A stretch of DNA of 64,000 nucleotides. Origin: Pyrinomonadaceae bacterium. Its GTDB lineage: Bacteria; Acidobacteriota; Blastocatellia; Pyrinomonadales; Pyrinomonadaceae. Below, one piece after another: positions 31,548 to 62,549 of this stretch (positions are counted from its first letter, which is position 1; each line of letters opens with the position of its first letter). The stretch spans positions 22,389 through 86,388 of the forward strand of contig JBGTKY010000018.1 of assembly GCA_041744395.1 (NCBI GenBank), in the 5' to 3' direction. Made by a program: the position numbers and the translations under genes. The notes under the pieces were generated by a model. The model did not search any database. It saw nothing but the letters and a program-made list of their open reading frames with translations, and had not been told where the DNA came from.

Positions 31548-31574
31548 AAAAGGCCCCGCAAATGCGAGGCCTTT
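31548..31574. terminator. bidirectional hairpin between convergent genes
   Basis: AAAGGCC-C-CGCA-AA-TGCG-A-GGCCTTT. The minus-strand reading is followed by TTTTCACTTTC. Confidence 0.45.
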
Positions 31575-31600
31575 CCGTTATTCTATTCACTATCGGCCAA

Positions 31601-32995
<1,395 letters not shown>

Positions 32996-37826: not shown

Positions 37827-37840
37827 GCAGCTTGCTCAAA

Positions 37841-40800
37841 ATGGAGACCCCAAAGCTCAAAAAAAACGACTTCGTCCATCTGCATTTGCACTCGGATTAT
37901 AGCCTTTTGCAAAGCACAATCCAACTTAAGCCTTTGGCCAAGCGGGCTGCGGAACTTGAGATGGCGGCGTGCGCTCTGACCGACAAGGGGAATATGTTCG
38001 GGGCTATCTCGTTCTACAAAGAACTGAAGTCTGCCGGCGTCAAACCGATCATCGGCTACGAAGCCAATTTCGTCAGCGGTAGCCGCGAAGAGCGGTCGTC
38101 GTCGGTGGCTTCGGGCGAACGGGCGTTCTATCCGTTTGTCCTGCTCGCAGCCGACATGGCCGGATATCAGAACCTCGTCGACATCTCATCGCGAGCGTAT
38201 ACTGAAGGGCTCTATCATACCCGGGCGAGGGTCGATCTAGAACTTTTGGCCGGACGTTCTTCGGGATTGATCGCCTTGTCAGGCGGTTGGGCAGGCCCGA
38301 TCGCCCATTATCTCCAACAAGGCGCCGACGATAAAGCTGCTGCGGCGGCATCGCAATTCCGCGAAATCTTCGGGCCGGAAAGGTTCTTTTTGGAGATCGA
38401 ACATCACGACGTCAGCTTCGGCGCCGAGCTGAACAAAAAGATCGCCGATCTCGCCAAACGCCTTGATATTGGCCTCGTCGCGACAAACAACGTCCACTAC
38501 CTAAGCCAAGACGACGCCCGGGCGCACGAAGTTCTGATGTGCATCGGCGAAGGCCGCACGCTGAATGATCCTGCCCGTCCAACGTTGTCCGATCCCAGTT
38601 ATTACATGCGATCGGCCGCCGAGATGTGGGAGATCTTCGGCAGCGAATACCCTGCGGCTCTTGAGAATACGCTCAAGATCGCAGAGATGTGCGACCTCAA
38701 ACTCTCCATTGGCGACGCGGAACTCATTCTGCCGGAGTTTCCCATTCCCGTCGATTCCGGCTGCACAAACATCGACGAATATTTCCGCCTCATTGCTAAC
38801 GAAGGCCTCGTCGGTCGAAAAACCGCCGTCTTGGATCCGATGCTCGAACGCGGCCAGCTGAATCATCCGATCGAAGCATATCAAGAGCGGCTGGACCTGG
38901 AAATAAAAATCATTGAAGGAATGGGCTACTCCGGCTACTTCCTTATTGTCTGGGATTTCATTCGTTACGCCATCGAAAAGAACATTCCGGTCGGTCCCGG
39001 ACGCGGATCTGCCGCCGGCTCGCTCGTTGCTTATTCGATGGGAATCACCGACATCGATCCGCTACAATACGATCTTTTCTTCGAGCGTTTCCTTAACCCC
39101 GAACGTGTTTCGATGCCCGATATCGACATTGACTTCTGCATCCGCGGCCGCGGTGAGGTCATCAGCCACGTATCTGAGCTTTACGGGCGCGAATCTGTTT
39201 GCCAGATCATCACTTTCATGACGATGGCGTCGAAGGCGGCGATCAAGGACGTCGGCAGAGTGCTGAACATGCCGCTCCGCGATGTGGAAAAGGTCGCGAA
39301 GATGATCCCGCCGCCATTCCGCGGGCGAAACATCAGCATCTCGCAGGCGCTCGAACAAGTGCCTGAGCTTAAGGCCGCCGTCGACACGCAGCCGGAAGTT
39401 AAAGACCTGATAGAGCTCGCCCTTCGGCTCGAAGGCTGTTCGCGAAACACCTCCGTCCACGCTGCTGGCGTGGTCATCGCACCAAAGCCGCTTCACCAGA
39501 TCGTCCCCGTCGCCGTCTCGCAAAAGTACGAACTTACGAGCCAGTATCCGATGGGCGACCTCGAGAAGGTCGGGATGCTGAAGATGGACTTCCTCGGCCT
39601 CACGACGCTTACGATCATCGCCGACTGCCTGGCGACGCTACGCGAAAAAGAAAGCGTCGAGATCGATTGGACCAAGATCCCGCTGACCGACGAAAAGACG
39701 ATGCAGCTCTTTGGCGAGGGCAAGACCGACGCCGTCTTCCAGTTCGAATCGTCGGGCATGCAGGAGATCTGCCGCCGCCTCAAACCAAAAGAGCTCGAGG
39801 ACCTTTCCGCCCTGAACGCGCTGTATCGTCCCGGTCCTCTCGATGGCGGCATGGTCGAGGAATTCATCCTCCGTCACAAAGGCGAGAAAGAGGTCCAGTA
39901 CCTGATCCCCGAGATGGAGGACATCCTTCGCAACACCTACGGCGTGCTCGTCTATCAGGAACAGATCATGCAGCTCGCGCAAAAGCTCGCCGGTTATTCG
40001 CTTGGCGAAGCCGACCTGATGAGGCGGGCGATGGGCAAAAAGAATAAGGCCGAAATGGACGTCCATGAGCGCAAGTTCATCGACGGTGCGATCGAACGCG
40101 GTGTCGCGAAACGCCAGGCGAAAGAGATCTTCGACCTGATGGCGAAATTTGCCGATTACGGCTTCAACCGCAGCCACAGTATTGCCTACGCCTACCTCGC
40201 GTTTCAGACCGCGTATCTGAAGGCGCATCATCCCGCGCATTTCTACGCAGCCGTTCTTTCCCATGAAGCCGACGACAGCGCAAAGGTCTATAAATATTCC
40301 AACGAGCTTCGGTCGATGGGTCTTGAGCTGCTTCCGCCTGACGTAAACGAAAGCGACGAAGGCTTCACGCCCGCAGGCAGATCGGTCCGCTTCGGTCTGA
40401 GTGCGATAAAGGGCATGGGCATGGCGACGGCGCTTGCAATAATCGGCGCCCGGGGCGAAGGCCGCTTCAAATCGATCTACGATCTCGTCTCGCGGATCGG
40501 CCACGGTGCGATAAATCGGCGCAGCCTCGAATCGCTGATCGCCGCCGGTGCACTCGACACGATGCGGCCCGACGGCGTCGAAACGAACAAATGGCGGGCA
40601 CAGCTTTTTGCCGCCATCGACGACGCCTTATCCTATGGCCAGAGCGTCTGGAGCGACCGCGAACGCGGCCAGAGCGGTCTATTTGCCGTCGCCGCTGAAT
40701 CGTCCGAGCCCGACAACGACCGCCTGCCGGACGTGCCGCCGTGGACACAGGCAGAGATCGCCGCAAAGGAAAAGGCGACGGTCGGCTTTTACCTTTCCGT

Positions 40801-41374
40801 CCATCCGCTGGACGAATACAAAACCATTCTCGAGGGCCTTCGCGTTACGGCGATCGCCGATCACCCTGACATCTCCGCCGGACGCCAGATCGTCGTCGCG
40901 GGCGTCGTCTCGGCGCTTCAGGTCCGCTGGAGCAAGAAAGGTAACCGCTACGCGCAGTTTCGCATCGAGGACCAATCGACCGGATTAAAATGCCTGATGT
41001 GGGCCGAAGCCTACGGCAAATTCGCCGATGTTATCGAAAACGATGCCCTGCTGATCATCGAAGGCAAAGTGGAATCGGCCGACGGCCAGGAAGTGACGGT
41101 CATGGTTTCCGAGGTCCGCTCGCTTGCCGATTCGGTCTCGCGGCACGCACGCTCGGTTGTCATCGACGTTCCCGGCAGCGACGCCGAAGAATCATTTCTG
41201 CAGGAGCTGTGTTCGGTTCTGAACCAGAATTCCGGCCGCTGCGAGGTCTTCCTTCGGCTGATTGTCGGCGGCGTCAGTGCGAAGCTTATCTCCAATCCGC
41301 TTCGTGTCCAGGGTTCGCGGCAGCTGGAGAACCAGTTGAAAAAACTGGGATGTTCTGTAAAGTGGGAACTGTAA
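37841..41374 (+). CDS. dnaE: DNA polymerase III alpha subunit
   Basis: From the ATG at 37841: [25 protein letters not shown] (PHP domain). Polymerase core ([16 protein letters not shown]), OB fold. The 108-nt upstream extension in the track overlaps miaB and is rejected. Confidence 0.95.
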
Positions 41375-48996: not shown

Positions 48997-49485
48997 TTAA
49001 GCAACCTTCGGCGGCGAAAGCCTTAGCCGCATCAGATGGGCGTCTTCGGTGGGGTGAGTATAGAAGTTTCGCCGTCGTCCGTCGATGAAGAACCCGAACG
49101 ATTCATAGAAGCCAATAGCGGCCAAATTTGAGGCTCGAACGTCCAACCAGATGTTGTTTGCCCTCGTCTTTCGCGCAAGCTCAATGAATTCGGCCATTAG
49201 CAACGCCCCCCCGCCCCGCCGCCGGAGCTCGGCCTTTATCCCGATGTTGTAGAGCTCGGCATCACGATCGGAGACTATTCCAGGCACAATTCTGCCGACG
49301 AGGAATCCGGCGCATTCGTCTGTCGGCGATTCGAGCCGGAGCATGATCGATAATGGCATTGCGGTCTCATCACGATAGTCAGCCTCGGACCAGTGGCTCA
49401 GGCCGCTGTCGTGAGCGATCTTCGTTATTGTTGGGACGTCCTCGGTCCGCAGCTGCCGAACGATGAAATTAACTTGCGGGGTCAT
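48997..49485 (-). CDS. rimI: ribosomal-protein-alanine N-acetyltransferase (GNAT)
   Basis: GNAT motif A (IGIKAELRRRGGGALLM). Immediately downstream of tsaB with a 4-nt overlap, which is the classical tsaB-rimI arrangement. Confidence 0.8.
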   Translation of the reverse strand: MTPQVNFIVRQLRTEDVPTITKIAHDSGLSHWSEADYRDETAMPLSIMLRLESPTDECAGFLVGRIVPGIVSDRDAELYNIGIKAELRRRGGGALLMAEFIELARKTRANNIWLDVRASNLAAIGFYESFGFFIDGRRRNFYTHPTEDAHLMRLRLSPPKVA

Positions 49486-50144
49486 ATCAGCTGCCGTTGG
49501 CGGGCCGGATTGTGAAGATACTGGGGCACAAGTTCTTCGTTGCCGTGACCCATGGTAACCGCTCGGCCGATCAGGAATGCGAGGTTGCGGCCGGAGTCAA
49601 TGATAGTCTTGTCGATCGATCCTGCGGCCGGACCTAATGATTCGTATAGATCGTGATGGAGTAAAACGAAATCGACATCAGCCGAACAAACAAGGTCTTC
49701 AATTACATTTCTTTCCATAACGATCGATTGCTCGATCTGGCGCAATGTTGACCCATTAACATCAAAAACGCCATATACCAGATCGTGACGACCGGTCGGC
49801 ACGGCAACCATTACTTTTCCGGAAGCAGAAAATGCCATTGCTTGCAGTACCGAAATGCTCCTTTGTTCAATACCCAGCGATCGGGCAAGCCCGAGTGCGG
49901 TTGCCGCGCCGATGCGGATTCCCGTGAAACTTCCGGGACCGTTTGAATAGGCGATAATATCGATCTCGGAAAGGTCCTTGCCGACATCTGTCAGCATCTC
50001 TGCAATATTTGGAATCAGATCTTCGGCCCGGGACACCGACGATTCGCCGCAAACGTTTTCAAGTTCGACTTCCCCAGCCAGCAAACTTAGGCTGCCACCA
50101 GCAACTCCTGACTCAATGGCAAGTATCAGTTTGTCGTCGTTCAT
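49482..50144 (-). CDS. tsaB: tRNA t6A37 biosynthesis protein TsaB
   Basis: ILAIESGVAGGSLSLL..., IIAYSNGPGSFTGIRIGAATALGLA (YeaZ/M22-like). Confidence 0.9.
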   Translation of the reverse strand: MNDDKLILAIESGVAGGSLSLLAGEVELENVCGESSVSRAEDLIPNIAEMLTDVGKDLSEIDIIAYSNGPGSFTGIRIGAATALGLARSLGIEQRSISVLQAMAFSASGKVMVAVPTGRHDLVYGVFDVNGSTLRQIEQSIVMERNVIEDLVCSADVDFVLLHHDLYESLGPAAGSIDKTIIDSGRNLAFLIGRAVTMGHGNEELVPQYLHNPARQRQLI

Positions 50145-51127
50145 TTCTTTCTGGATCGGCGAAAAATATCCCTAAACCGGGCAATTGATGGACCAATTCG
50201 TTTGATTATGCTTCCGAACTGGGCCGACAATCTTGAACTGTCGTCGAAAGGCGTTTCGGTATCTATTGAGGATTGTATCGGATTTGGCGGGATCCGTTTA
50301 CGGATCTGTTGCAAAAGGAATCGCGGATCCCTGTAAGCAACGCGGAGCGGCCTTAAACGCACATCAGAGGCCCATTCTTTCTCTACACACTGCGTTAGCC
50401 ACTTGGGGATACGCTTGGCTTCGTCTGCAAAAGGCAGGTCATTTAACGGCAGATCAAGATATCTGTGTGCGAGGCCGATCGTTGTGATGACCCAGCCGCG
50501 ACGGGTCTCACACACGCAGCCAAGGCATTTGTCCCAATCAAACGTCGAAGGGCGGTTGGCGACAGCATAATAGATGTCCCACAGCCGTTCCTTGTACTCT
50601 CCGCCATCGGTCAGCCAGTGGACACAAAGGATCCGCAAGTGGTCCTCAGCACAAGGATAGCGGACAGTTACGCCGTTGATCTCGGATGATTCCGATCTTT
50701 CGTAAAGTTGGGGCCAACTAAGGCTGTCGAGATGGCGAAGCTCCCGATGCAGATCAACCCCGCCGGACGGAAATTCCGGAGAGGCGATCAGTGCTCCGGC
50801 ACACCCATGATCGATGGCCGAAACGCATATATCCACATCAGCATACTCTCGAATGATCGAATTCGGATAAACTTGGGCCGCTACCCAGCCTTTTATCGTC
50901 AGCGTTTGAATTCGCTTGTCTGTAAAAAATGAAACGAAATCAGATAATCGGCGCTCTAGAATTTTCGCATTCAATGCAGGCCAGCGATCTATATTGCTCG
51001 GGACAATCGTATCTTCCATTGAAAAAAGCGGGACGAGCCCGCTTATCTTCCTTAAAAAATGATAGAAAGTAAATCCTGCTATTGTAGTACGCAAACCGAA
51101 CCTATACAGGCCGTTGCAGTCGGACAC
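50141..51127 (-). CDS. NTP_transf_5-type (uncharacterised) nucleotidyltransferase family protein
   Basis: Blocks KGWVAAQVYPNSIIREYADVDICV and VRYPCAEDHLRILCVHWL are typical of this family. Its stop overlaps the tsaB ATG (ATGA). The start is uncertain: 51127 overlaps the upstream gene by 49 nt, and the alternative ATG at 51019 does not. Confidence 0.65.
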   Translation of the reverse strand: MSDCNGLYRFGLRTTIAGFTFYHFLRKISGLVPLFSMEDTIVPSNIDRWPALNAKILERRLSDFVSFFTDKRIQTLTIKGWVAAQVYPNSIIREYADVDICVSAIDHGCAGALIASPEFPSGGVDLHRELRHLDSLSWPQLYERSESSEINGVTVRYPCAEDHLRILCVHWLTDGGEYKERLWDIYYAVANRPSTFDWDKCLGCVCETRRGWVITTIGLAHRYLDLPLNDLPFADEAKRIPKWLTQCVEKEWASDVRLRPLRVAYRDPRFLLQQIRKRIPPNPIQSSIDTETPFDDSSRLSAQFGSIIKRIGPSIARFRDIFRRSRKK

Positions 51128-51558
51128 CCAGGAGCCGCACAGTCAGCGACCAAGGCACAGGCACAGGAAAGGTTCGCTAATGCACTCTGCGGAGCAGCCA
51201 GTGACGCAACGATCGGAAGTGCCACCATCGCTCCGAGCCCGATCTTCTTGATCACATCGCGACGCGATTGGCCTGAGAACGTTGGCGAAATAGCCGTTTC
51301 CATTAAGTTATTTTCATTAAGCTGATCGATAGCCAGCCAAACTAGATCCTGAGAAACAGGGGTATTAGAACTGGCTTCCACGATCGATGCAATGTCTGAG
51401 ACCGAATTAACGCCATCACATGACCTCCAGACCAGTCCGGCAGTTTTATTAAGGCAATGGGCTTTGTTTGCTTCCATGTCATAGACAAGCACCTCGTCAG
51501 GAACTTCCTGGATCACCAGGCCGTTCTTTCGAGCAATAGGATTCTGCGAATTAATCAT
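51079..51558 (-). CDS. PqqD-like (RRE-type) protein fused to a twin-arginine-like hydrophobic segment and a 6-Cys tail
   Basis: I prefer the ATG at 51558, 4 nt after GGAGGAG. The PqqD pattern is LVIQEVPDEVLVYDMEANKAHCLNKTAGLVWRSCDGVNSVSDIASIV...DLVWLAIDQL. This is followed by SRRDVIKKIGLGAMVALPIVASLAAPQSALA (51175-51267) and NLSCACALVADCAAPGCPTATACIGSVCVLQ (51079-51174). Confidence 0.65.
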   Translation of the reverse strand: MINSQNPIARKNGLVIQEVPDEVLVYDMEANKAHCLNKTAGLVWRSCDGVNSVSDIASIVEASSNTPVSQDLVWLAIDQLNENNLMETAISPTFSGQSRRDVIKKIGLGAMVALPIVASLAAPQSALANLSCACALVADCAAPGCPTATACIGSVCVLQ

Positions 51559-51597
51559 TTTCTCCTCCATACTGTTGGCGAAAGTAAGACTCGTCAA

Positions 51598-52434
51598 CTA
51601 GTCATGATCTTTTAGATCTTCAATAAATTTAATAAGTACCGGTGCGAATTGCTTGGCGTCATATCGCATACCTTTTAGGATTATGGCATGTGCCAACGAG
51701 CTTTTCAACAATTTTAGTGCAAAATCCGCATTACTTGTCATAGAAATTGCATGAGGAATTGTTTCCATTATCCCATTTCCAACTGAAAGCCGCTCCGGCT
51801 CCCACCGAGCAGATTCTACATACTTTGTGAATACAACGTAGTTTATAGGTGTTGGATCTTTCCCAACGGTTGCCCCTAAGTCTTCTGGTGGGACACGAAA
51901 TAAACCCTTTAACGTGCGAACTGAAAGGTCACGAGGAAAAGGATGGCAAAATCCATCCACATCAATGATTGCATACTCATCAGAATAATATTCGGCTCCG
52001 CGAGTGACCAGTTCAGCTATCAGCGTAGTTTTTCCATCATAACTGTTACCGGGAAACATTATTCCACTGTTTTTCCATCGTACGACCCCGGCATGTATAA
52101 AAAGCTTGTCAAGGGCGAATTCCGCAATTTTTATCCTCACTCTGCTACTGAGCTCTCCAAATAAGAAGTTCTTATCAGGGGTGTGCCGTAGGTGAGCCCC
52201 ACTCTCAAAAATGTCGAAGCTTTGATCTGGGTTTGCCTTTATCGCAAATTTAAACCTAGCGTGTTGGGCAGAATCAACGAATCTCATATGTCCGACCAAC
52301 GCTCGTCGTAAAAACTGAGTAGCGTCGGTCAAAGTATCTAATGAATCGCTTTCGAGACTTATCGAAACCCCAAAGGACTCAAACGCTACTCGATTTTCAA
52401 ACATATTGTAGCTTTTCGGCTCGAGATCACTCAT
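51598..52434 (-). CDS. HPr-kinase-like (HprK-related) P-loop protein
   Basis: LFIHAGVVRWKNSGIMFPGNSYDGKTTLIAELVTRGAEYYSDEYAII matches the HprK C-terminal domain P-loop pattern. Strongly AT-rich gene. Confidence 0.65.
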   Translation of the reverse strand: MSDLEPKSYNMFENRVAFESFGVSISLESDSLDTLTDATQFLRRALVGHMRFVDSAQHARFKFAIKANPDQSFDIFESGAHLRHTPDKNFLFGELSSRVRIKIAEFALDKLFIHAGVVRWKNSGIMFPGNSYDGKTTLIAELVTRGAEYYSDEYAIIDVDGFCHPFPRDLSVRTLKGLFRVPPEDLGATVGKDPTPINYVVFTKYVESARWEPERLSVGNGIMETIPHAISMTSNADFALKLLKSSLAHAIILKGMRYDAKQFAPVLIKFIEDLKDHD

Positions 52435-52486: not shown

Positions 52487-53623
52487 TTAATGGACGATAC
52501 CTCTTAAATGAGGACATCTGAGCAGTAAACCACCCGAACTACCTGTTAATATTGCAATGTGAACGGTTAGATAGTTAGGGCCTAGCAAAAGAATGAAAAG
52601 TGCAGAAAGGGCAACACAAATCATGACAATAATATAAACTAAGGCCACATATGAATGGCTTTTTCCGGATATCGTTAGTCTTTGATAAATATGGCCTCGG
52701 TGTGCACGCCAAACTCTTTCCCGTCCGACTAGACGTCTGCAAAAAGTGAAAACTGTATCGAAAACGAATAGCCATATCATCGATAGCGCCAGCCACGGCA
52801 GAATCCCGTGGTCGATTGCCCCCGTTCGAGCAACTAACAAGGGCAGCGCAGAAATTACAAACCCGACGTACGCACTTCCCACGTCGCCCATAAAGATCTT
52901 GGCCGGCTGCCAGTTGTGAAACAAAAACCCCAAGCAGCTTCCCGCTATCGCAAGGCCAAATAACGCTGTAGGCTGATCGCCCACTATCAACGCTACCATC
53001 AACCACCCTACTGCGCTGACAACCGCCTGGCCCCCCGCAATACCGTCGATCCCGTCCATGAAATTAAAGGCGTTAATAATCCATACTATCCATAGAAAGG
53101 AAATTGCAAGCCCCCAAACCCCCAAATCAAGTGATTCAAATCCAAACGGCAAGGAAACTGACTCAAAGTAGCCGACCTCAACGATGACAGTGAGCGCAGC
53201 GATCGAGTGAAAGAAAAATCGAATAAGAACATTTACAGAATAAAGGTCATCCAGCCAGCTGATCGCCGCGATCAGAATACCACCCACTAGAAAACTCCAC
53301 GCGAAGAACTGGGGGAAAAACACACATACGACGATATAAGCAACCACCGTCAATACGACGATCACAAGCCCGCCTCCCCTCGGTGTCGGCTGATCATGAG
53401 AGCTTCGGTCATTCGGAACGTCCAGGAAACCGCGCCTCAGGCTCCAGCGTCGGAAAAATTCGACGCCAGAGTACGATGCGGCTAAGGAGATTACGAAGAT
53501 CAACAGGTAAAGCACGATTATCGAACGCTCAAAGTATCTTTCGATAGGCCTCAACAGCCGTTTCGAGGGAATATTTTTCTTCGGCCACGTGACGCGCACG
53601 CATGCCCATTGCCCGCAGTTCAT
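52487..53623 (-). CDS. MraY/WecA-family polyprenyl-phosphate N-acetylhexosamine-1-phosphate transferase
   Basis: Polytopic membrane protein. Motifs DVPNDRSSH, DDLYS, NAFNFMDGIDGIAGG. The start is uncertain: ATG 53623 overlaps the upstream GT by 95 nt, and TTG at 53554 is an alternative. Confidence 0.85.
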   Translation of the reverse strand: MNCGQWACVRVTWPKKNIPSKRLLRPIERYFERSIIVLYLLIFVISLAASYSGVEFFRRWSLRRGFLDVPNDRSSHDQPTPRGGGLVIVVLTVVAYIVVCVFFPQFFAWSFLVGGILIAAISWLDDLYSVNVLIRFFFHSIAALTVIVEVGYFESVSLPFGFESLDLGVWGLAISFLWIVWIINAFNFMDGIDGIAGGQAVVSAVGWLMVALIVGDQPTALFGLAIAGSCLGFLFHNWQPAKIFMGDVGSAYVGFVISALPLLVARTGAIDHGILPWLALSMIWLFVFDTVFTFCRRLVGRERVWRAHRGHIYQRLTISGKSHSYVALVYIIVMICVALSALFILLLGPNYLTVHIAILTGSSGGLLLRCPHLRGIVH

Positions 53624-54761
53624 CGGGCTGACCGATTAATTGCTGTATTGCCGCCACGATTTCTTCTGGCCGATTGGGAGGCACAGTTCTGCCAACATCA
53701 TCATCTTTGATGACAAGATCGAGCTCGGAACCTTCTTCAGTGATTCCAATTATCGGTTTACCGGCTGCCAAAATGTTATAGGTTCGGCTGGGCATTGAAA
53801 CACCTTTCATTCCCGAGACCAACGAAACTAAAGCGACATCGCAGCCATTGAGAAAATTGTTCTGATCAGACCGCGGTCGCGGATCTAGCAACGTTACATT
53901 GGTCAATGCGAGTTGATTTACTGAATTCTCTAGCCATCGCCTTTTTGCTCCGGTACCGAGAAAAACAAATTGCACATTTTCGGAATCTCTCATCAGTTCA
54001 GCCGCCCGAACTATACTTTCAATGTCATTCGGATGACCCATATTTCCCGCATACAACAAAACAAACCAGTCCGAAATGCCTAATTCACGGAGTAACGCAT
54101 TTGAGGATCGTGGCTCCGGGGTGACCGTTTCGAGTTCGGCCCAGTTCGGAATGTTGACAATCGGAATATCCAGCCCCTCGGTTTTTCTTTCTAATAGCTG
54201 CTGCATATCGCGCCCAACAACTATGATCTGCGCAGCATGCTTGTAAAGCCACCGATTAATGTGCCCTATAAACTGAGCAAGTACTGAATCCTTATGAGTT
54301 TTACCTACAGCAATAAGAATTTCTGGGTAATTATCATGTACAAGTAGAGAATAAGACGCGCCGCGAACCAGTGAGCTTATGGCGGCGACGAACGGAAGAA
54401 TAGGTGGCGTCGTAACAACTAGCACCTGATCACCAGCCCGGAATCGCCGAACTGAAGTAAAAAGCATCGTCGTCGCAAGGGTCATCATATTGATTACGCG
54501 AAATAAGACGATATTCTTATCAAGTGTTGTGCTCGCAGTCCGAAAGATCTCGACGCCATTGTGAAGTTCACGCTTTGGAGCTTTTGTGCCTCTCCGCGAA
54601 TAATTTGGCTGCCCGCAAAGTGCGCGGACTTGCAGATCGCCGACGAGCCCTTCTGCGATTTTGGTCATGTAATAGCCCGTCGAGGTTTCCTCAGGATAAT
54701 AAAGTTCCGAAACAACCCACACACGCGATGTTTCGCTTTTCTTTTCTGATTCGGCCGACAT
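53529..54761 (-). CDS. glycosyltransferase family 4 (WbuB/WcaI-like)
   Basis: VWVVSELYYPEETSTGYYMTKIAEGL N-terminus. C-terminal GT-B nucleotide-sugar domain (LLYAGNMG.., PSRTYNILAAGKPIIG). Confidence 0.85.
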   Translation of the reverse strand: MSAESEKKSETSRVWVVSELYYPEETSTGYYMTKIAEGLVGDLQVRALCGQPNYSRRGTKAPKRELHNGVEIFRTASTTLDKNIVLFRVINMMTLATTMLFTSVRRFRAGDQVLVVTTPPILPFVAAISSLVRGASYSLLVHDNYPEILIAVGKTHKDSVLAQFIGHINRWLYKHAAQIIVVGRDMQQLLERKTEGLDIPIVNIPNWAELETVTPEPRSSNALLRELGISDWFVLLYAGNMGHPNDIESIVRAAELMRDSENVQFVFLGTGAKRRWLENSVNQLALTNVTLLDPRPRSDQNNFLNGCDVALVSLVSGMKGVSMPSRTYNILAAGKPIIGITEEGSELDLVIKDDDVGRTVPPNRPEEIVAAIQQLIGQPDELRAMGMRARHVAEEKYSLETAVEAYRKIL

Positions 54762-54773
54762 TAATGTAATACG

Positions 54774-55955
54774 TTAACTGTTCGAAAGTGCTTTTTCGAG
54801 TACCGCGGCAGTTGCCGCTTCGACACTCGGATCCATCAGCCATTCCTGAGCAAAAGCTCTTGCCGACAATGACATGGACCGATACTCATTCTCGCCCATT
54901 TCAATACAATCGACCAAGACCTTCCGCCACTCGTCAACATGGTCCAACGGTATATTCCAGCCAAGACCTTTCTCTTCAAGTTCTTCCCATACGGTTCGAT
55001 CACTTATTATTAACGGGCAGCCGGCAGCCATTGCCTCAACAAAAACATATCCAAAATTCTCACCGAGTGTCGGCAAAACGAAAAAATGAGCATCCGCAAG
55101 GTGACCTAAAACGTCACGATTCACCATCGCTCCGAGAATATTTACTCGGATATTCGGTGAAAGGCCGGCGATCAAACGGTTGCACTCCGCCCAATAATGC
55201 TCATCCTCCAGCGGGCCGATGATATCAAGGTGGATTTCTCCAGTCGTCACGCCAATTAGAGCCTCAAGCAAAAATGCCAAATTTTTCTTTCTGGTGACGC
55301 GCGAAACAAAAGACAATTGTACTTTACCTTCTGTTTTTGGTGGTTTCGAGGAGAAAGTAAAATCGGGCAAGATCGATCTAGGTGGTAGGTCGGGAGCGGT
55401 CATGATCTGAGCTTTTCGGCCGAAGATCTGTTCGATCTCTTGCTTCTCGGCCTCAAATGAAGCCTTCCAAAGAATCCGATCGTAGAGTCCCGTAGCCTTC
55501 GCTCCGGCGATAAATGCCTTTTTCTTTAGGGGTTTTAAGTTGATAGCTGCGGGCGTAAGTTCCCCACACGGTGCCAGGATAGTGGGAATTTGAGAGAACC
55601 GGCTCGATTTTTTGAGCAAAAGATACTTAATCGCAAGCGTGCAAAAAAAACTGTTCAGGAAAACGGCATCAGGCTTTATATCGTTGAGAAGATAGCCAAG
55701 GTTTTTACGGTTAACCCCCGAGTCTGGAACGTAATAGACCATCGCCGATCCGATTGGATTCCATTCGTTAGTTTGGACCTCGGTATAAGGCCTCTTGTCA
55801 TTTCTGCCGTCGTAGTTTCTAGTGACTATAAAAAAATCATACCTGTCCGAGAACCTTTCGACAAGATTAACCACGGTCCACATTCCGCCGCCGCTGCGAA
55901 AACCGGGCAAATAATAGTCACAGAAAACAAGGATCCTTTTATTCATCCAGCCCAC
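54774..55955 (-). CDS. glycosyltransferase (GT-B fold, family 1/4)
   Basis: ILVFCDYYLPGFRSGG N-terminus. E-x7-E region ENFGYVFVEAMAAGCPLIISD. Confidence 0.8.
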   Translation of the reverse strand: MGWMNKRILVFCDYYLPGFRSGGGMWTVVNLVERFSDRYDFFIVTRNYDGRNDKRPYTEVQTNEWNPIGSAMVYYVPDSGVNRKNLGYLLNDIKPDAVFLNSFFCTLAIKYLLLKKSSRFSQIPTILAPCGELTPAAINLKPLKKKAFIAGAKATGLYDRILWKASFEAEKQEIEQIFGRKAQIMTAPDLPPRSILPDFTFSSKPPKTEGKVQLSFVSRVTRKKNLAFLLEALIGVTTGEIHLDIIGPLEDEHYWAECNRLIAGLSPNIRVNILGAMVNRDVLGHLADAHFFVLPTLGENFGYVFVEAMAAGCPLIISDRTVWEELEEKGLGWNIPLDHVDEWRKVLVDCIEMGENEYRSMSLSARAFAQEWLMDPSVEAATAAVLEKALSNS

Positions 55956-55961
55956 TATCGC

Positions 55962-57062
55962 TTAAGATCCATATCGACGTTGATTTGTGAATCCCAGCAA
56001 GATCTTGCTTACGGCTTGTGCGACGTTAGTTGCCAGATATTCCGGTGGCGGCGTCCAATCAGCAGGCTGCGAGATCGCAAGTTCTACCGATCTGAGAATG
56101 GATTCAGCAGTGGCTCCGCTCAGAATATTGCTACCGCACTCAACTGTTTCCGGTCGTTCCGTAACGTCCCTTACTGTGATATTTGGTATTCCGAAAATGC
56201 AACATTCTTCCTGAACTGTTCCGCTGTCAGTAAGAACTGCGAGTGAATTCTTCTCAAGTTTAACGAAGTCGAAAAAACCCATCGCATCTACGAGCACAAG
56301 CCTGTTTGGATCTACATCGATATCAAACTCGATGAGTCTTGAGGCCGTCCGCGGGTGAACACTTATCAGTACCTTTTTGTCAAAATGCGCGGAAACCTGT
56401 GAAAAGCCGTTCAGAATGCTTTCAAGACGATCCGGAATATCGACATTTTCTGCTCTATGGAGAGTCGAAAGAAAGTACTCAAATTCGCGGAGCCTGTGTT
56501 TCTCCAAAATCTTGCTCGAATCGATTTGGTCCCCGAAACCATCCAGTACCTCCTTTATAGGATTTCCTGTCACAAAAATGCGCTCGCGTTCGATTCCCTC
56601 CCGCACCAGATTTTCCTTACTGCGGCGTGTATACGGAAGCAACACTTGGCTAGAATGGTCGATGATTCGGCGGTTTATTTCTTCGGGAACCCGTTCGTCA
56701 TAACAACGGTTTCCAGCTTCCATGTGAAACACGGGAATCCCACGCCGGGCAGCAGGAATTGCGGACAGGGCACTGTTGGTATCACCAAGTATTAGGATCT
56801 TATCAGGCTTATATTCTTCAAGAACGGCATCTATCTTCGATAATATCTGGCCTATCTGATCGCCAAATGATTCCGAGCGAATTCCTAGGTGGACGTCGGG
56901 GGTTCGAACGCCGAGGTCACGAATAAAGACATCGCTTAGACTCTCATGGTAGTTCTGGCCGGTATGAACCGTTATATGGTCACAATGCTGATCTAGGATC
57001 TTTAGGATCAAGCTAAGCCTAATTATTTCAGGCCGCGTTCCGAAGATCGTCATTAATTTCAT
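55962..57062 (-). CDS. UDP-N-acetylglucosamine 2-epimerase family (WecB/FnlC/Cap5G-like, non-hydrolysing)
   Basis: MKLMTIFGTRPEIIRLSLI, ILGDTNS, HMEAGNR, TDSGTVQEE. Confidence 0.9.
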   Translation of the reverse strand: MKLMTIFGTRPEIIRLSLILKILDQHCDHITVHTGQNYHESLSDVFIRDLGVRTPDVHLGIRSESFGDQIGQILSKIDAVLEEYKPDKILILGDTNSALSAIPAARRGIPVFHMEAGNRCYDERVPEEINRRIIDHSSQVLLPYTRRSKENLVREGIERERIFVTGNPIKEVLDGFGDQIDSSKILEKHRLREFEYFLSTLHRAENVDIPDRLESILNGFSQVSAHFDKKVLISVHPRTASRLIEFDIDVDPNRLVLVDAMGFFDFVKLEKNSLAVLTDSGTVQEECCIFGIPNITVRDVTERPETVECGSNILSGATAESILRSVELAISQPADWTPPPEYLATNVAQAVSKILLGFTNQRRYGS

Positions 57063-57079
57063 AATTGAAGATACGGGGC

Positions 57080-58126
57080 TTATCCCTTTTCGATAAATCG
57101 TTCGATGTCGCCGCCTGCCGAGGCCAAAAGTTCCTTCAGTTCGCTTATAGAAACATTATCGTTTTTCGAAGAATACTCGGATTCTAAGGGTACGATCGAG
57201 TCTTCCGCCCCACGTAGCTCAGGAAGCACCGGGAGAATCACATAGTAATCACCCCGTTCGATAGTTCGAAAGCATTCTTCTTCCGACACCATTATTTCGT
57301 GTATTTTTTCACCTGGGCGAATTCCGGTGTATTCGATTGGCAGATCACTATCACCCATAAGTGCCATTGCCACATCCGTAATTTTGGCCGAAGCCACCTT
57401 GGGAACATAGGTTTCGCCGGCTCTGCCTTCGGATACAGCTGCGAACACTGTATCAACGGCTCGGTCTAGACTTAAAAGGAATCGGGTCATCTCCGGCAAA
57501 GTCACGGTCAACGATTTTCCGTTTCGTATCTGTTCAACAAAAAGCGGCACAATGGAACCGCGCGAGGCGATCACATTGCCATACCGAACGCACATGATCT
57601 TAGTCTGAGGGCAATTTCGGTTCGCTTCGATCAGAACACGTTCCTGCAATGCCTTTGTCATCCCCATTACATTAATAGGTTTACAGGCCTTGTCCGTAGA
57701 AATCCCTACCACTGTTTCGACCAGAAGGTCGTGTTCTCTAATTGCCCGGACGACATTCTGCGCTCCAACGATGTTGGTCAGTACCGCCTCATATGGATAG
57801 TATTCGCACGACGGAACTTGTTTAAGTGCTGCCGCATGGAAGATTACGTCCGCATTTCGCATCGCAGAGAGAATTGCCGGATAATCGCGCACGTCGCCGA
57901 TACGGAAATCGAGGATGTCGTCAGCCGCCTTGTAGATAACGTCATCAGTCGCGGTCGTACGATCCATGAAATCGAGCCGCATGTAATGCTGCTTTGCTTC
58001 ATCCCGAGAGAAAACGGTGATCGATGCCGGAAGTCCTGCCTCGCCGGAAAGCAATCTCCGGACAAGCGTCTGTCCTAATGAACCCGTCCCGCCGGTGACA
58101 AGTATACGTTTGCCTTCGAGTACCAT
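57080..58126 (-). CDS. UDP-GlcNAc 4,6-dehydratase/epimerase of the CapE/FnlA type (short CapD-like SDR)
   Basis: ILVTGGTGSLGQTLVRRLL Rossmann motif. FSRDEAKQ. The active-site region reads NVMGMTKALQ, i.e. M-x-x-x-K rather than Y-x-x-x-K, as I recall for CapE/FnlA. Confidence 0.75.
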   Translation of the reverse strand: MVLEGKRILVTGGTGSLGQTLVRRLLSGEAGLPASITVFSRDEAKQHYMRLDFMDRTTATDDVIYKAADDILDFRIGDVRDYPAILSAMRNADVIFHAAALKQVPSCEYYPYEAVLTNIVGAQNVVRAIREHDLLVETVVGISTDKACKPINVMGMTKALQERVLIEANRNCPQTKIMCVRYGNVIASRGSIVPLFVEQIRNGKSLTVTLPEMTRFLLSLDRAVDTVFAAVSEGRAGETYVPKVASAKITDVAMALMGDSDLPIEYTGIRPGEKIHEIMVSEEECFRTIERGDYYVILPVLPELRGAEDSIVPLESEYSSKNDNVSISELKELLASAGGDIERFIEKG

Positions 58127-59007
58127 TAGGTGTTTCTAAAACTGTCGTACGGCGTCGGATCTTTTGCCATTCTTTTGATCATCTCATCCCACGGATGCGG
58201 TCTGAAACCGGTTGCTTGTTCAAACCTGCTGCCGTCAAGGCTGCGGTCGATCTTGAAATCTTCATCCCGCGTGATCGTGATATCTGCGTCGTAATATTTA
58301 CCTACCAAAGTAAGTAGATCAAACTTATTGATCGGCTCGGCAGCGACGTGGTGTAACCCACTAAGTTTTTTGCGATCACTGATCAAACTAGCAATTATAT
58401 CTGCGAAGACGATAGTTGGAAAGCCGGAATATATCGCGTTTGTGAATCCCATGATGGTTTTGCCGCGGTTAGAGAGAAACCATTCGATCAAGCTGTGCGA
58501 AGATTCGAGTTCCCTGCCGATAATCGAACTGCGGATAGTCATGCAATTCGGTCCGATCAACTCGCCTAGGTTTTTGCTTTTGCCGTAAAGATCGGTTGCG
58601 TTCGGCCCGTCGTCTTCGTTGTAAAGCCCCATGACGCCGTCGAAAACACAGTCTGTACTCACCGATATCGTTCGAAAGCCGTATTTTGATCCCAACTCGG
58701 CCAAGCGATGCGGAAAAATGGCATTTATTTCGAGAGTAGTAATGACATCCGTGGCCGACGGCAACTGTTTAATGACGCCGACCGCGTTTATCACGACATT
58801 TGGCCGAATTTCAGCGATCGCAGCTTCGACAGATACCTTTTCGCGTACGTCAACATCCTCAATGATGTTGGAACGGTCGAAAATGCCGTATTTTTCAATA
58901 GAGGAATACTCTCCGCGGATCGTCGCCGAAACCTCGAACCGCGGGCTGAGTCGCTGATATAGTTTATGGCCCAGCATTCCGGTTGCACCGAAAATGAGAA
59001 TCTTCAT
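58126..59007 (-). CDS. RmlD-like SDR reductase (FnlB-type role plausible)
   Basis: MKILIFGATGMLGHKLYQRL. Length and blocks resemble the dTDP-4-dehydrorhamnose reductase family. 1-nt overlap with the next gene. Confidence 0.7.
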   Translation of the reverse strand: MKILIFGATGMLGHKLYQRLSPRFEVSATIRGEYSSIEKYGIFDRSNIIEDVDVREKVSVEAAIAEIRPNVVINAVGVIKQLPSATDVITTLEINAIFPHRLAELGSKYGFRTISVSTDCVFDGVMGLYNEDDGPNATDLYGKSKNLGELIGPNCMTIRSSIIGRELESSHSLIEWFLSNRGKTIMGFTNAIYSGFPTIVFADIIASLISDRKKLSGLHHVAAEPINKFDLLTLVGKYYDADITITRDEDFKIDRSLDGSRFEQATGFRPHPWDEMIKRMAKDPTPYDSFRNT

Positions 59008-59444
59008 TCTTTTGGAAGAGAACGTGAATAACTTTCAAAACAACGGCTATAATTATGAAAGCAAGCTAACAGTCCGAGGAAATTAGCTTGCATCTAGTTT
59101 TTAATCCGTTCTTATAAGAACACCATTGGCCATTCGGTAAGGAATCAATTACTAATGCGACGCCATGCGCTTGGAGATTGGCAAGGACTAAAAGTCCCCT
59201 TTGGAAAAAATCTGTATAGAAGATGCCGGCGGTTTTCCGCCGCTACTCCCGGCTCCTTGCGAAGAAGTTCTAACGTTCATTAAAAACAAAAATATCAAAT
59301 TTGACGAAATGAGTATTGTGACTTCAGAACGCATTGTCTTTCCATAGTGCCTCCATTTCCGCGCAAATGCCCAATCGCACTCTGGTTAGACCCCAGAATT
59401 CGGCGATAAACACATTTTGGGGGCGTTTCCTTACATTAAACAGA

Positions 59445-60257
59445 TTATTCTAGAGTTGAATCTAATGCAAGAAGAATGGAATTTGAAAAAAAATGCACCG
59501 ACGGATCAGAATGTGGATCCGGCGGGTTACGCTGGAAACCAAGGCTCTCGATGATCGGGACAATTTCGTTCGAATGGCGCCCGTGTCGTTCGTGGATCTC
59601 CATGATTACATACCGGCATTGGGTGAGCTTCTGATGCGATGGGTTTAGGAAGACATCATATTCCGCCTCTTCAACATCGATCTTGCATATATCGATAACT
59701 TCGTCTTTGAAATAATTGTTGCAGAAATGATCCAACGTTAATCCTTGTATTTTAAAGGTCTTTAAGTTTGATGACTTGCTCTTCGAATAGATATTGTCCG
59801 ATACACTGCCACTTCCAAGTGATAGTTCAAGAACGGTGCTTTCGCCGCACAATGCGGCGTTTAGCGGAATGACTTCGCAATTGAGGTTTCTGGTTAAGTT
59901 GAAATGCAGTCGCGTATAGGTTCTCGGATTAAACTCAACGCTGACAACTTTTTTCATTGCGACGCCGCAACTCGCGAGCAATAGCGGAAAGCCGCCGTTA
60001 TTCGCTCCGAGATCCAAGACATTCGCGGGGCCGGGCAAATTCATTTTCGGTAAATATCGGCGATACATTTGAGAGGTTAGTACGTCACGGGCTCCGTTGG
60101 CGTCGCCGCCTTCATGATCAGTCAATATCTCGAGACTTTTATAGCGATAGACCTGAAGGTTCTCACGTCGAAAAAATATCCTCGATATTGCAAGCCATAT
60201 ACGGTTATCAAATGCCCAAACTTCGCGCAAACCTCTAATTTTATTCTGCAAACTCAT
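59445..60257 (-). CDS. FkbM-family methyltransferase
   Basis: VLDLGANNGGFPLLLA SAM motif I. CKIDVEEAEYDVF block typical of FkbM. Confidence 0.8.
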   Translation of the reverse strand: MSLQNKIRGLREVWAFDNRIWLAISRIFFRRENLQVYRYKSLEILTDHEGGDANGARDVLTSQMYRRYLPKMNLPGPANVLDLGANNGGFPLLLASCGVAMKKVVSVEFNPRTYTRLHFNLTRNLNCEVIPLNAALCGESTVLELSLGSGSVSDNIYSKSKSSNLKTFKIQGLTLDHFCNNYFKDEVIDICKIDVEEAEYDVFLNPSHQKLTQCRYVIMEIHERHGRHSNEIVPIIESLGFQRNPPDPHSDPSVHFFSNSILLALDSTLE

Positions 60258-60267
60258 TCGAATATCG

Positions 60268-61404
60268 CTACACTGAAATGACTTCTAATTCACTAGTTTC
60301 AGTACTGTTAATTTTATAGGCAAAGACCTTCAAACTTTTCCAAGCCGAATCGACCGAGATGCCGTTCATGCAGGGATTATCAGTCAGCGGACATTCTGGC
60401 AACCGACAACCAGCGCATTCGACGGAGTGGAAAACGACCATGTGCGAACTTCCGAGCGGATACCACTGCCCTGGATTGTTGCGTTCACCGTACAGGGCAA
60501 AACACGGTGTGCCAACGGCCGCTGCAAGATGGGTAGTTCCGGTATCAAGGCCAATGTAAAATTCGCATATCGAAAGCAAAGCACCAGACTCTGGGACAGT
60601 AAATTTCCCGGCAGCATTTATCCCTGTCTTCCAAGCGGCGATCATTTCTTGTCCGAGATCGAATTCTGCTTTTCCGCCAACAACTACGATCTCGCAATTC
60701 TCTTCGGAAATTAATCTCCGTCCAATTTCAATGAATCTGATCAACGGCCAGTCATTAGCATGGGTTTTACAGCCCGGTGCAATTGCGACTAAACGCGCCT
60801 TCGGTTTTGCCCTTTCGCCGGCGAGCCAAGCTAATATTGGTTCAAGAAACTCATGTGAAAACGTGAGTAGCGGCTGCCGAAGGTCTTTTTCCGGCACGCC
60901 CTCAATGCCGTCGAGTTCTAGCCGATTCAATTTGCGATCGGCTTCGTGTTCGGTCAGCGATGGATGTCCGTACGCATCTGACGGATACAATTCATCTTTC
61001 GAAAATGCATGGAATCCGAAAAGATTGCGGATTCCAGAAAAACGAAAGAATAACTTATCTCGTCGGACAGAACGTGACGGGCGTTCGCTTATGACTAAAT
61101 ATACGACTCCGTCAAACTTTTCTTTCCGGATTCTCCACCAGAGGTTTAAAAAGCCTTGTATCTTTCCGGAACTCCTCGTTTCGCTCGAGTAATCCAGGTG
61201 TCGGTCAATAAGTTCAGACGGTATTACCTCAGAGGCTTTAACTACATTCCCTGTTTGAACATTTTGCAAAAGTACGATCTCGGCGCCCCGGAAATGCCTT
61301 CGGATGGCTCGCAAGGCCGGAATTGCAACGATCGTGTCACCCAAAGAACCGAAAAGATAGACAAGGATCTTTTGTTGCTGTAGTTTCTCTAATCGAGATC
61401 GCAT
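60268..61404 (-). CDS. glycosyltransferase family 9 (heptosyltransferase-like)
   Basis: ILVYLFGSLGDTIVAIPALRAIRRHF, and GLDTGTTHLAAAVGTPCFALYG. Confidence 0.85.
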   Translation of the reverse strand: MRSRLEKLQQQKILVYLFGSLGDTIVAIPALRAIRRHFRGAEIVLLQNVQTGNVVKASEVIPSELIDRHLDYSSETRSSGKIQGFLNLWWRIRKEKFDGVVYLVISERPSRSVRRDKLFFRFSGIRNLFGFHAFSKDELYPSDAYGHPSLTEHEADRKLNRLELDGIEGVPEKDLRQPLLTFSHEFLEPILAWLAGERAKPKARLVAIAPGCKTHANDWPLIRFIEIGRRLISEENCEIVVVGGKAEFDLGQEMIAAWKTGINAAGKFTVPESGALLSICEFYIGLDTGTTHLAAAVGTPCFALYGERNNPGQWYPLGSSHMVVFHSVECAGCRLPECPLTDNPCMNGISVDSAWKSLKVFAYKINSTETSELEVISV

Positions 61405-61416
61405 TACTGTCAGATA

Positions 61417-62373: not shown

Positions 62374-62549
62374 TATTTTTCGGTTCGCACCAATGCCGAT
62401 CGGCGCGAGTCGCTTCTTTTTCGCCTATCTTGCTACTTGCTTTAGCGAGTGGTGCAATAAAGTTGACTCTTGGCTTTAACCGAAACGTTGGGTTTGCATA
62501 ATGCCGTCTGCGATGCTATTTCGGTCGACTTGCTGACGCTAGTGGCAAC

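Follow-up and report, generated by a model that had tools for sequence, protein, structure and literature searches.

The stretch of DNA analysed here, 64,000 nucleotides from contig JBGTKY010000018.1 of a Pyrinomonadaceae bacterium and referred to below as the window, carries on its minus strand five co-directional genes, which were identified by reading of open reading frames (ORFs) and by profile searches. They are, in order, K (the kinase-like gene), the fusion gene, in which a RiPP recognition element (RRE; RiPP, ribosomally synthesised and post-translationally modified peptide) is joined to a cysteine-rich tail, N (the nucleotidyltransferase gene), tsaB and a rimI-like GNAT gene. An original prediction had taken the first three for HprK-like, PqqD-like and NTP_transf_5 genes, and had proposed that the second encodes a core peptide fused to its own recognition element and export signal. 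The three ORFs lie where that prediction had placed them, and only the start of N had to be corrected, to 51019. As argued below, a precursor that carries its RRE in cis and is modified in the cytoplasm, exported and cleaved is the best-supported model for the fusion protein, one to which we would give slightly less than an even chance of being right. The features of the locus are listed below in window coordinates, with the basis of each assignment in brackets; homologous loci that were compared with this one carry L-numbers.

51598..52434, minus strand: K, a PEPCK/HprK-fold P-loop kinase-like protein of 278 amino acids (TIGR04352 below cut-off; AlphaFold2 and Foldseek)
about 52024-52050, minus strand: Walker A motif GNSYDGKTT of K (sequence)
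51680..51708, minus strand: sigma-70-like promoter match, TTGAAA-17-CATAAT with extended TG (consensus scan, window only)
51562..51568, minus strand: GGAGGAG Shine-Dalgarno sequence of the fusion gene, 3 nucleotides before the ATG at 51558 (read from the sequence)
51079-51558, minus strand: fusion gene, 159 amino acids (ORF; PF05402 above gathering score)
51304..51558, minus strand: RRE/PqqD-like domain, residues 1-85 (PF05402, AlphaFold2, Foldseek)
51268..51303, minus strand: linker, residues 86-97, variable save for F94-x-G96 (alignment frequencies)
51244..51267, minus strand: putative twin-arginine n-region SRRDVIKK, residues 98-105 (RR conservation; TIGR01409 sub-threshold)
51190..51243, minus strand: hydrophobic core IGLGAMVALPIVASLAAP, residues 106-123 (conservation, hydropathy)
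51175..51189, minus strand: c-region QSALA, with a predicted signal peptidase I site after A128 (conservation of A126 and A128)
51082..51174, minus strand: predicted mature six-cysteine peptide NLSCACALVADCAAPGCPTATACIGSVCVLQ, residues 129-159 (conservation of the cysteine columns)
51020..51044, minus strand: intrinsic-terminator-like hairpin AAGCGGGCTCGTCCCGCTT with a T-run, abutting the start codon of N (consensus scan)
50141..51019, minus strand: N, a PF14907 (NTP_transf_5) nucleotidyltransferase of 292 amino acids (PF14907 above gathering score)
49482..50144, minus strand: tsaB (TIGR03725, 95.9 bits against a cut-off of 69.3; ATGA overlap with N)
48997..49485, minus strand: rimI-like GNAT gene, the final gene of the conserved block (TIGR01575, E 7e-23)

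The fusion protein belongs to a large family. A word-indexed homologue search returned 1860 matches, and the best 120 of these, which were inspected, are about 160 amino acids long and are 59-83% identical to the query at a coverage of 92-99% (one 81%, one 88%). With each species represented by one genome, a scan yielded 320 relatives, of which all 80 listed are Blastocatellia, comprising Pyrinomonadaceae, Chloracidobacterium and other Acidobacteriota. When 1.84 billion cluster representatives (50% identity) were searched with HMMER, 7637 matches were obtained at E≤1e-3 and 867 at E≤1e-30. The architecture thus recurs in 1860 homologues, 320 species and 867 clusters, and so is not a product of chance. 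Many family members are longer (200-250 amino acids) and combine the same RRE, twin-arginine segment and core with tails of 60-116 residues that contain 8-20 cysteines, so that the number of cysteines per tail ranges from 6 to 20 across the family. The gene is also found in tandem, with three copies in L073 and two each in L036, L045, L087, L089, L103, L147 and L159, and the tandem copies carry differing cores.

The assignment of the N-terminal part of the fusion protein as PqqD-like was upheld by PF05402, which matched with 25.9 bits against a gathering cut-off of 23.4, and nearly all of the homologues carry precomputed matches to the same profile. In the AlphaFold2 model the domain (pLDDT about 80) consists of three beta strands (residues 14-19, 22-27 and 32-37) followed by three alpha helices (38-46, 53-64 and 70-82). 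Its best Foldseek matches in the PDB were the lasso B1 proteins TbiB1 (5v1v/5v1u; TM 0.72 on the target) and 6jx3; the RRE domains of CteB, SkfB, TigE and ThcOx ranked next. At the level of the predicted fold, the N-terminus is confirmed as a lasso-B1-like RiPP recognition element. The sheet, including the peptide-binding edge strand beta3, is its most conserved part, and the beta3 segment K32-A-H-C-L-N37 (KAHCLN) is invariant in the alignments. As counted from the sequence, the domain is acidic, with about 12 D/E against 5 K/R in residues 1-90, and for this reason a ToxR-like role in DNA binding was rejected.

The Met of the sequence METAIS, from which a separate downstream ORF might have started, is not conserved in the alignments, where it is usually Leu; the fusion is therefore one ORF, and an internal start giving a separate twin-arginine peptide was rejected on the same ground. 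The idea that a small precursor ORF lies hidden between the genes was likewise rejected, as the gaps are only 5-120 nucleotides long or are occupied by the terminator. Positions that are invariant or nearly so run through the whole chain: K32-N37, F94, G96, S98, R99, R100, K104, G107, P115, A118-S-L120, P123, A126, A128, S131 and the six cysteines. The mean frequency of the most common residue was 0.91 in the RRE sheet, 0.86 in the hydrophobic core and 0.84 in the F-x-G-x-SRR...KK segment (residues 94-105), and 0.48 both in the linker (86-93) and at the non-cysteine positions of the tail. AlphaFold2 assigned a beta strand to residues 117-121, which would fit docking of this part of the core onto the RRE sheet. 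A test for covariation between the RRE and the signal segment (mutual information with APC correction; 325 sequences, Neff about 160) mainly reflected the phylogeny of the subfamilies and gave no contact signal.

The residues that follow the linker had been read as a twin-arginine n-region, a hydrophobic core, an ALA site and a six-cysteine tail, and all of these are present. The motif S-R-R-[EDQ]-[VA]-[IL]-K-[KT] agrees at 6 of 7 positions with the consensus of the twin-arginine translocation (Tat) pathway, S/T-R-R-x-F-L-K. The arginine pair was found in all of the 120 canonical and 103 long-tailed proteins and in 126 of the 130 cluster representatives (349/353 overall), the only departures being changes to KR or KK in the remaining four representatives. 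The core is fixed at 18 residues, has a mean Kyte-Doolittle hydropathy of 2.05, and contains P115, A118, S119, L120 and P123 as invariant residues; A126 and A128, at -3 and -1 of the predicted cleavage site, are conserved in at least 90% of sequences, with the invariant P123 at -6. The distance from the A-P to the first cysteine is 8 residues in 184 of 185 sequences. The invariance of the arginines, the moderate hydrophobicity of the core, the Pro at -6 and the Ala at -3 and -1 are more in keeping with a Tat-type signal that is cleaved than with a plain anchor in the membrane. Together with the fixed length of the core, these features also speak against the possibility, raised in the original prediction, that the hydrophobic segment is a simple anchor.

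A second question raised there was whether orthologues keep the C-terminal extension and its cysteines. They do: the six cysteine columns are invariant or nearly so, mainly with the spacing C-1-C-5-C-(5 or 7)-C-5-C-5-C, and a Ser directly precedes the first cysteine in 185 of 192 sequences. The C-terminal half of the tail is fairly conserved as C-P-S-T-T-N-C-N-G-x-G-x-C-A-P. The number of cysteines is even in 119 of 120 canonical proteins, 126 of 130 representatives and 99 of 103 long-tailed proteins (344/353 overall). This parity matches that of all-disulfide domains, which implies that the cysteines would form disulfides rather than thioethers. Among the paralogues, some tails consist of Dicty_CTDC extracellular cysteine repeats, some combine an extra cysteine module with the canonical C-P-S-T-x-N-C-N module, and one (P0260) is replaced by a 170-amino-acid ectodomain of a non-cysteine type.

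The product of K had been called HprK-like, an assignment that held at the level of the fold and fell short of the curated profile cut-offs. TIGR04352 matched it with only 43 bits (E 2e-11) against a cut-off of 200, no Pfam profile matched it, and PF07475 (Hpr_kinase_C) was matched by just one of 33 orthologues (E 0.006). As a sequence-profile search of the K family against the PDB also returned no match, a fold search was needed. The AlphaFold2 model (pLDDT 92.5) matched ATP-PEPCK (E 2e-6) and the HprK/P structure 1kkl (E 8e-5) in Foldseek, both with probability 1.00. The motifs HAG..S..GK[TS]T..GAEYYSDEYA..HPFPR are invariant in the 33 orthologues, including the Walker A GK[TS]T and the acidic SDEY motif. 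A protein that fails the curated sequence thresholds and yet matches the PEPCK/HprK fold is, on the strength of the structural model, an HprK/PEPCK-fold kinase-like protein of its own family, weakly linked to ScmC. The HprK-like kinase family also includes phosphorylases. The gene had also been described as strongly AT-rich, which overstated the case, as its GC content is 41-45% against about 48-52% nearby. Horizontal acquisition of K was rejected because this dip is small and the synteny is vertical.

The nucleotidyltransferase assignment of N was substantiated by PF14907, with 48.7 bits against a gathering cut-off of 31.2, and the motifs KG, D-x-D and D-x-H, which hold the catalytic carboxylates, are invariant in 69 orthologues. 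The ATG at 51019 was taken as its start instead of the GTG at 51127 because the orthologues are about 292 amino acids long and because a terminator-like hairpin (51026-51044 without its T-run) lies between the two genes. The overlap of its stop codon with the tsaB start (ATGA), already remarked on in the original prediction, is present in the window and in 34 of 65 orthologous loci, and in 55 the two genes lie within 20 nucleotides of each other.

The arrangement of signals around the fusion gene suggested that it could be expressed on its own. The strong GGAGGAG Shine-Dalgarno sequence noted originally does stand at 51562-51568, 3 nucleotides ahead of the ATG; a conserved 'MEEKM' upstream reading in the orthologous loci arises because it uses the same bases. 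The sigma-70-like match scores 10/12 and sits within the 3' end of K, about 120 nucleotides upstream of the fusion gene. Downstream, a hairpin (-13 to -26 kcal/mol) with a T-run was found within about 70 nucleotides of the fusion stop codon in 58 of 70 loci, although the hairpin sequences themselves differ. In the same scan such a structure followed K in 14/76 loci, N in 9/70, tsaB in 1/66, rimI in 3/64 and the WecA-like gene in 3/58, that is 1.5-18% among the other operon genes. From the promoter match and the terminator-like hairpin, the fusion gene could form a separate short transcript, and the position of the hairpin, as a pattern match that falls short of proof, recalls a layout often seen with abundantly expressed precursor genes. 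Because the T-run of the window directly abuts the ATG of N, the expression of N, tsaB and rimI must rely on read-through.

The gene order K, fusion gene, N, tsaB, rimI is kept across the 84 loci compared, in which K was present in 76, N in 70, tsaB in 66 and rimI in 64, most absences falling at contig ends. The wider neighbourhood (DUF465, a PQQ_2 propeller, ssb, accA and dnaE) is also conserved. From its sequence context, the triad of K, fusion gene and N is part of the chromosome and is passed on vertically, unlike a mobile cluster.

Two further arrangements were found. The second, 'type II', which was recovered by a scan of metagenomes, consists of DUF1223, a small two-span membrane protein, a fusion gene with eight cysteines, K on the opposite strand, a small ORF, Peptidase_M50B and YkuD; at least 10 loci have K beside the fusion gene in this convergent order. 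Examples are L103:1144-7013, L130, L159 and L167, in which the DUF1223 protein has a CSSC motif and YkuD is an L,D-transpeptidase; the two-span protein (90-110 amino acids) was seen in 15 loci, and the small ORF encodes 90-140 amino acids ('LPIGARLLVRSRTDW'). In the third, represented by L098 and L099, N and K flank a MauE/DoxX protein that has two thioredoxin domains, and the three genes lie in a row among transposases, 5-8 kb from a fusion gene. The MauE/DoxX protein (L098:13295-17079 and L099:4444-7860) has 494 amino acids and carries two thioredoxin/AhpC-TSA domains with CGPC and CGFC motifs; the transferase gene of L099 is split between two ORFs. This MauE/DoxX-thioredoxin fusion may be a dedicated disulfide-handling partner. 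As K is found beside the fusion gene in two independent arrangements, and N together with K in two, the association points to function rather than to inherited adjacency.

A single ORF that holds an RRE, a leader-like signal and a variable core, flanked by K and N, fits the general layout of a RiPP precursor. The tandem copies with variable cores, the conserved terminator and the pairing with K in two orders fit the proposal that the core is fused in cis to its own recognition element. For export, cleavage, the identity of the modification and the action of K and N on the fusion protein, we infer the following course. In the cytoplasm the RRE would act as a docking site that brings K, and N where it is present, to the same chain, and it might also bind its own leader/signal segment. 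K and N would then modify a hydroxyl residue in the C-terminal part, by phosphorylation followed by addition of a sugar or nucleotide to the phosphate; candidate sites are the near-invariant Ser131 before the first cysteine, the C-P-S-T-T motif, or Ser98 of the S-R-R. The S-R-R-x-[VA]-[IL]-K motif and the 18-residue core would serve as a Tat-type signal, with the RRE staying in the cytoplasm, and signal peptidase I would cleave after the A-x-A. The released peptide of about 31 residues would fold outside the cytoplasm with three disulfides. By analogy with the lasso homologues, phosphorylation and transfer are the likeliest chemistry for K and N: in those pathways the kinase phosphorylates a Ser of the precursor (the C-terminal one) and the transferase adds a hexose to the phosphate (PMC8498205). 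A route to the exterior by a general pathway has a precedent in the bufferins, RiPP precursors that are exported via a general secretion signal and need no dedicated exporter (PMC11626156).

Several observations weigh against this model. With regard to the signal, TIGR01409 aligned over its full length but scored 14.3 bits against a cut-off of 16.7 (E 0.04), and the motif is internal, starting at residue 98 behind a folded 85-residue domain, so that 97 residues precede it, which is unusual for Tat; the AlphaFold2 model of the C-terminal half has a pLDDT of only 48-67. With regard to the enzymes, the original prediction had called the system self-contained and had made K and N its tailoring enzymes, and on these two points it went beyond what the comparison bears out. 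The tails lack a conserved terminal Ser, their last residues being C-A-P or similar, and since lasso kinases need a C-terminal Ser the target would have to be another residue. Both K and the WecA-like gene are missing, and N is kept, in the eight-cysteine subclade L005/L011/L019/L031, and L068 has no N. Most long-tailed paralogues are found on their own, and around five that lie on long contigs no K or N occurs within 8-10 kb; among the metagenomic fusion copies with enough flanking sequence, only 7 of 52 have a convergent K. Finally, N is translationally coupled to tsaB, so that part of the synteny could reflect the inertia of a housekeeping operon.

Several other explanations were considered. 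The fusion protein could be an uncleaved bitopic membrane protein for signalling, in which the twin arginines and the core form a signal anchor, the cysteine-rich knob acts outside the cytoplasm as a sensor or ligand, and the cytoplasmic RRE serves as the output domain by binding K; intramembrane proteolysis might release the protein. Its topology (N-terminus in, one span, C-terminus out) is like that of anti-sigma and ToxR-like proteins, and an invariant helix-breaking proline in the span, here Pro115, is typical of substrates of site-2 proteases; a Peptidase_M50B gene near the fusion gene in 8 type II loci points the same way, although this may be simple lineage synteny. Some paralogues adjoin sigma-54 two-component genes, and P0260 has its 170-residue non-cysteine ectodomain, but the canonical ectodomain is only about 31 residues long. 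Moreover, the conserved Pro at -6, the Ala at -3 and -1 and the fixed 8 residues to the first cysteine would be needless in a plain anchor, an 18-residue core of moderate hydrophobicity is short for a stable span, and the acidity of the RRE excludes DNA binding of the ToxR type. We regard a signalling role as unlikely. A different view, to which we attach somewhat less weight still, is that the RRE is a built-in chaperone of its own export signal and that no peptide chemistry takes place, K and N regulating release or being irrelevant, with ordinary disulfide-rich secreted mini-proteins as products. This would make sense of the fact that beta3 of the RRE and the signal core are the two best-conserved segments, of the predicted strand at 117-121, which must pair with another strand, of the many paralogues with no K or N nearby, and of the recurrence of thiol-disulfide oxidoreductase-type genes (DUF1223, MauE/DoxX-thioredoxin) in the vicinity. 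The adjacency of K in two independent orders argues instead for a direct relation between K and its substrate; no RRE is known to act as such a chaperone, and the covariation test, phylogeny-dominated as it was with its 325 sequences, gave no signal for contacts between RRE and signal.

The remaining explanations concern K and N more than the fusion protein. These could be accessory genes of envelope-glycan synthesis or tRNA modification that are unrelated to the fusion protein and adjacent by descent. The locus is bordered by an LPS/heptose/FucNAc-type cluster on one side and by tsaB on the other, N and tsaB are coupled through a conserved ATGA, the terminator separates the fusion gene from N, and either K or N can be lost. 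However, K recurs beside divergent fusion genes in the convergent order, where neither the LPS cluster nor tsaB is present, N recurs beside K without tsaB in L098 and L099, and the combination of K, PqqD and N is the one known from lasso clusters. That K and N are unrelated to the fusion protein seems to us improbable. The same combination could be taken to mean that the triad is the decayed remnant of a lasso cluster with no present function, since K, a B1-like RRE and N are otherwise known as a trio from lasso clusters and no B2 protease or C cyclase is found. Purifying selection on all three genes across at least 320 species, with catalytic motifs intact, and the expansion of the fusion family to thousands of clusters effectively refute this, and we give it next to no credence. 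An anti-phage defence system was also considered and was rejected, as there were no PADLOC matches.

A more far-reaching form of the cis-RRE precursor model would make the fusion protein the founding example of a large, undescribed class of natural products or secreted mini-proteins, in which the substrate carries its own RRE, the RRE doubles as receptor of the Tat signal and retains it in cis until K and N have acted, and these act on the Ser of S-R-R or on that before the first cysteine, the modification gating Tat export; one K/N pair could then serve many scattered, hypervariable cysteine-rich paralogues in trans. We consider this conceivable but doubtful.

The known systems that come closest to the triad are the clusters for phosphorylated and phosphoglycosylated lasso peptides (paeninodin and pseudomycoidin). 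They share an HPr-kinase-like kinase, a discrete PqqD-type RRE and a PF14907-type transferase, the kinase gene adjoins the RRE gene, and the substrate is a ribosomal peptide. The present locus differs in having no cyclase, B2 protease, separate precursor gene or ABC exporter: neither a B2 transglutaminase-like protease nor a C asparagine-synthetase-like cyclase was found in the window or among those neighbours of L001-L004 that have Pfam annotation. The only Asn_synthase match, in L003, carries GATase domains and sits in the glycan cluster. Further differences are that the RRE here is fused to the presumed substrate, that the leader is a putative twin-arginine signal, that the core is of a cysteine-rich disulfide type with no C-terminal Ser, and that the locus is vertical and lies in a housekeeping neighbourhood, whereas lasso clusters are sporadic.

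SynChlorMet clusters contain a similar pair, the HprK-like ScmC and the PqqD-like ScmD, with a weak kinship in sequence: the RRE matched TIGR04248 (ScmD) with E 0.003, or E 1e-7 for a paralogue, and K orthologues match PF27840 (ScmC). These scores are, however, far below the family cut-offs (17.7 bits against 100 for TIGR04248), and no radical SAM/SPASM partners were adjacent in the neighbourhoods examined or in the window. With borosins (omphalotin-type), in which the core peptide is fused to a catalytic methyltransferase, the fusion protein shares the joining of a core to part of its own machinery, but here that part is a recognition domain only. Tat chaperones of the TorD/DmsD/NapD type hold a twin-arginine leader until maturation in the cytoplasm is finished; the binding module here would differ in being an RRE, in cis and upstream of the signal, and we know of no relation of the fusion protein to TorD- or NapD-type chaperones in sequence or fold. 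The small subunit of methylamine dehydrogenase is likewise small, very disulfide-rich and Tat-led, and needs MauE/MauD. Bufferins (MNIO-modified DUF2282 or BUF_6/12Cys precursors) share with the present family a cysteine-rich precursor, a general signal peptide cut by signal peptidase, an RRE-containing partner and, in some clusters, a DoxX-type protein (PMC11626156), which the MauE/DoxX fusion in L098 recalls. They differ in that their signal is an N-terminal Sec signal, that the RRE is on a separate protein (DUF2063) and that an MNIO enzyme makes thiooxazoles, whereas the present proteins have an internal, Tat-like signal and carry their RRE in cis. None of MNIO (DUF692), DUF2063 or DUF2282 was found in any neighbourhood examined. 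Literature searches found no natural Tat-led RiPP and no RRE-fused precursor, returned nothing that links PqqD and cysteine-rich peptides in Acidobacteria, and brought together RiPPs and twin arginines only in engineered or unrelated cases. The parts are known, but the arrangement (a cis RRE, an internal Tat-like leader and a disulfide-type core, with no cyclase, protease or exporter) is one that has not been described, and it defines a very large family in an under-studied class of bacteria.

In RiPP pathways, precursor, recognition element and exporter are normally distinct components. In the present system a single chain appears to unite the three, and Tat together with signal peptidase would replace a dedicated protease and transporter. 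If the model is right, it would provide a new rule for the mining of genomes for RiPPs, namely an RRE followed by a signal and a variable tail, as well as a natural example of a Tat-exported modified peptide, and HprK-like kinases and PF14907 transferases would gain a role outside lasso peptides. The Blastocatellia are abundant and poorly studied soil bacteria. As the family is found universally across this class, where it has radiated into thousands of clusters, it may make up a major and so far unrecognised part of the biology of their envelope or extracellular space.

Upstream of the triad, the window contains an LPS/O-antigen-type cluster (52487-63590) with genes for a WecA-like GT4, two GT1s, a UDP-GlcNAc 2-epimerase, Polysacc_synt_2, an RmlD-like protein and an FkbM methyltransferase, and with a heptose part made up of GT9 heptosyltransferase, PfkB and SIS/cytidylyltransferase (ADP-heptose) genes. 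The UDP-GlcNAc 2-epimerase, Polysacc_synt_2 and RmlD-like genes correspond to a UDP-L-FucNAc-type route. Neither a radical SAM enzyme nor a lasso cyclase, lasso protease or ABC exporter is encoded in this cluster. The WecA-like gene adjoins K in 58 of the 84 loci and is absent in loci of the Chloracidobacterium type.

Some irregular loci were noted in the course of the comparison. In four related Chloracidobacterium-type genomes (L027:6924-9569, L035:6871-9390, L037:7217-9100 and L062:6964-8937), a lone phage terminase large-subunit-like ORF of 630-880 amino acids (Terminase_6N and Terminase_6C) is inserted precisely between the fusion terminator and N, with no further phage genes evident in the stretch read. 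In L070 (5989-7571) the fusion tail is frameshifted after the first cysteine and the nucleotidyltransferase gene is split, and an IS200/IS605-type (REP-associated tyrosine) transposase-like ORF lies directly downstream. The orphan long-tailed paralogues of L086:11976-17895 and L087:5068-12709 stand beside genes for a BNR-repeat protein, a dCache histidine kinase, a sigma-54 activator and a single-domain response regulator, a setting that hints at regulated expression of those copies. Elsewhere in the window, ORFs overlap on opposite strands at 31562-32881 (358 amino acids on the plus strand, 426 on the minus strand) and at 37733-41374 (1213 on the plus strand, 288 on the minus strand), and at least one ORF of each pair is probably spurious.

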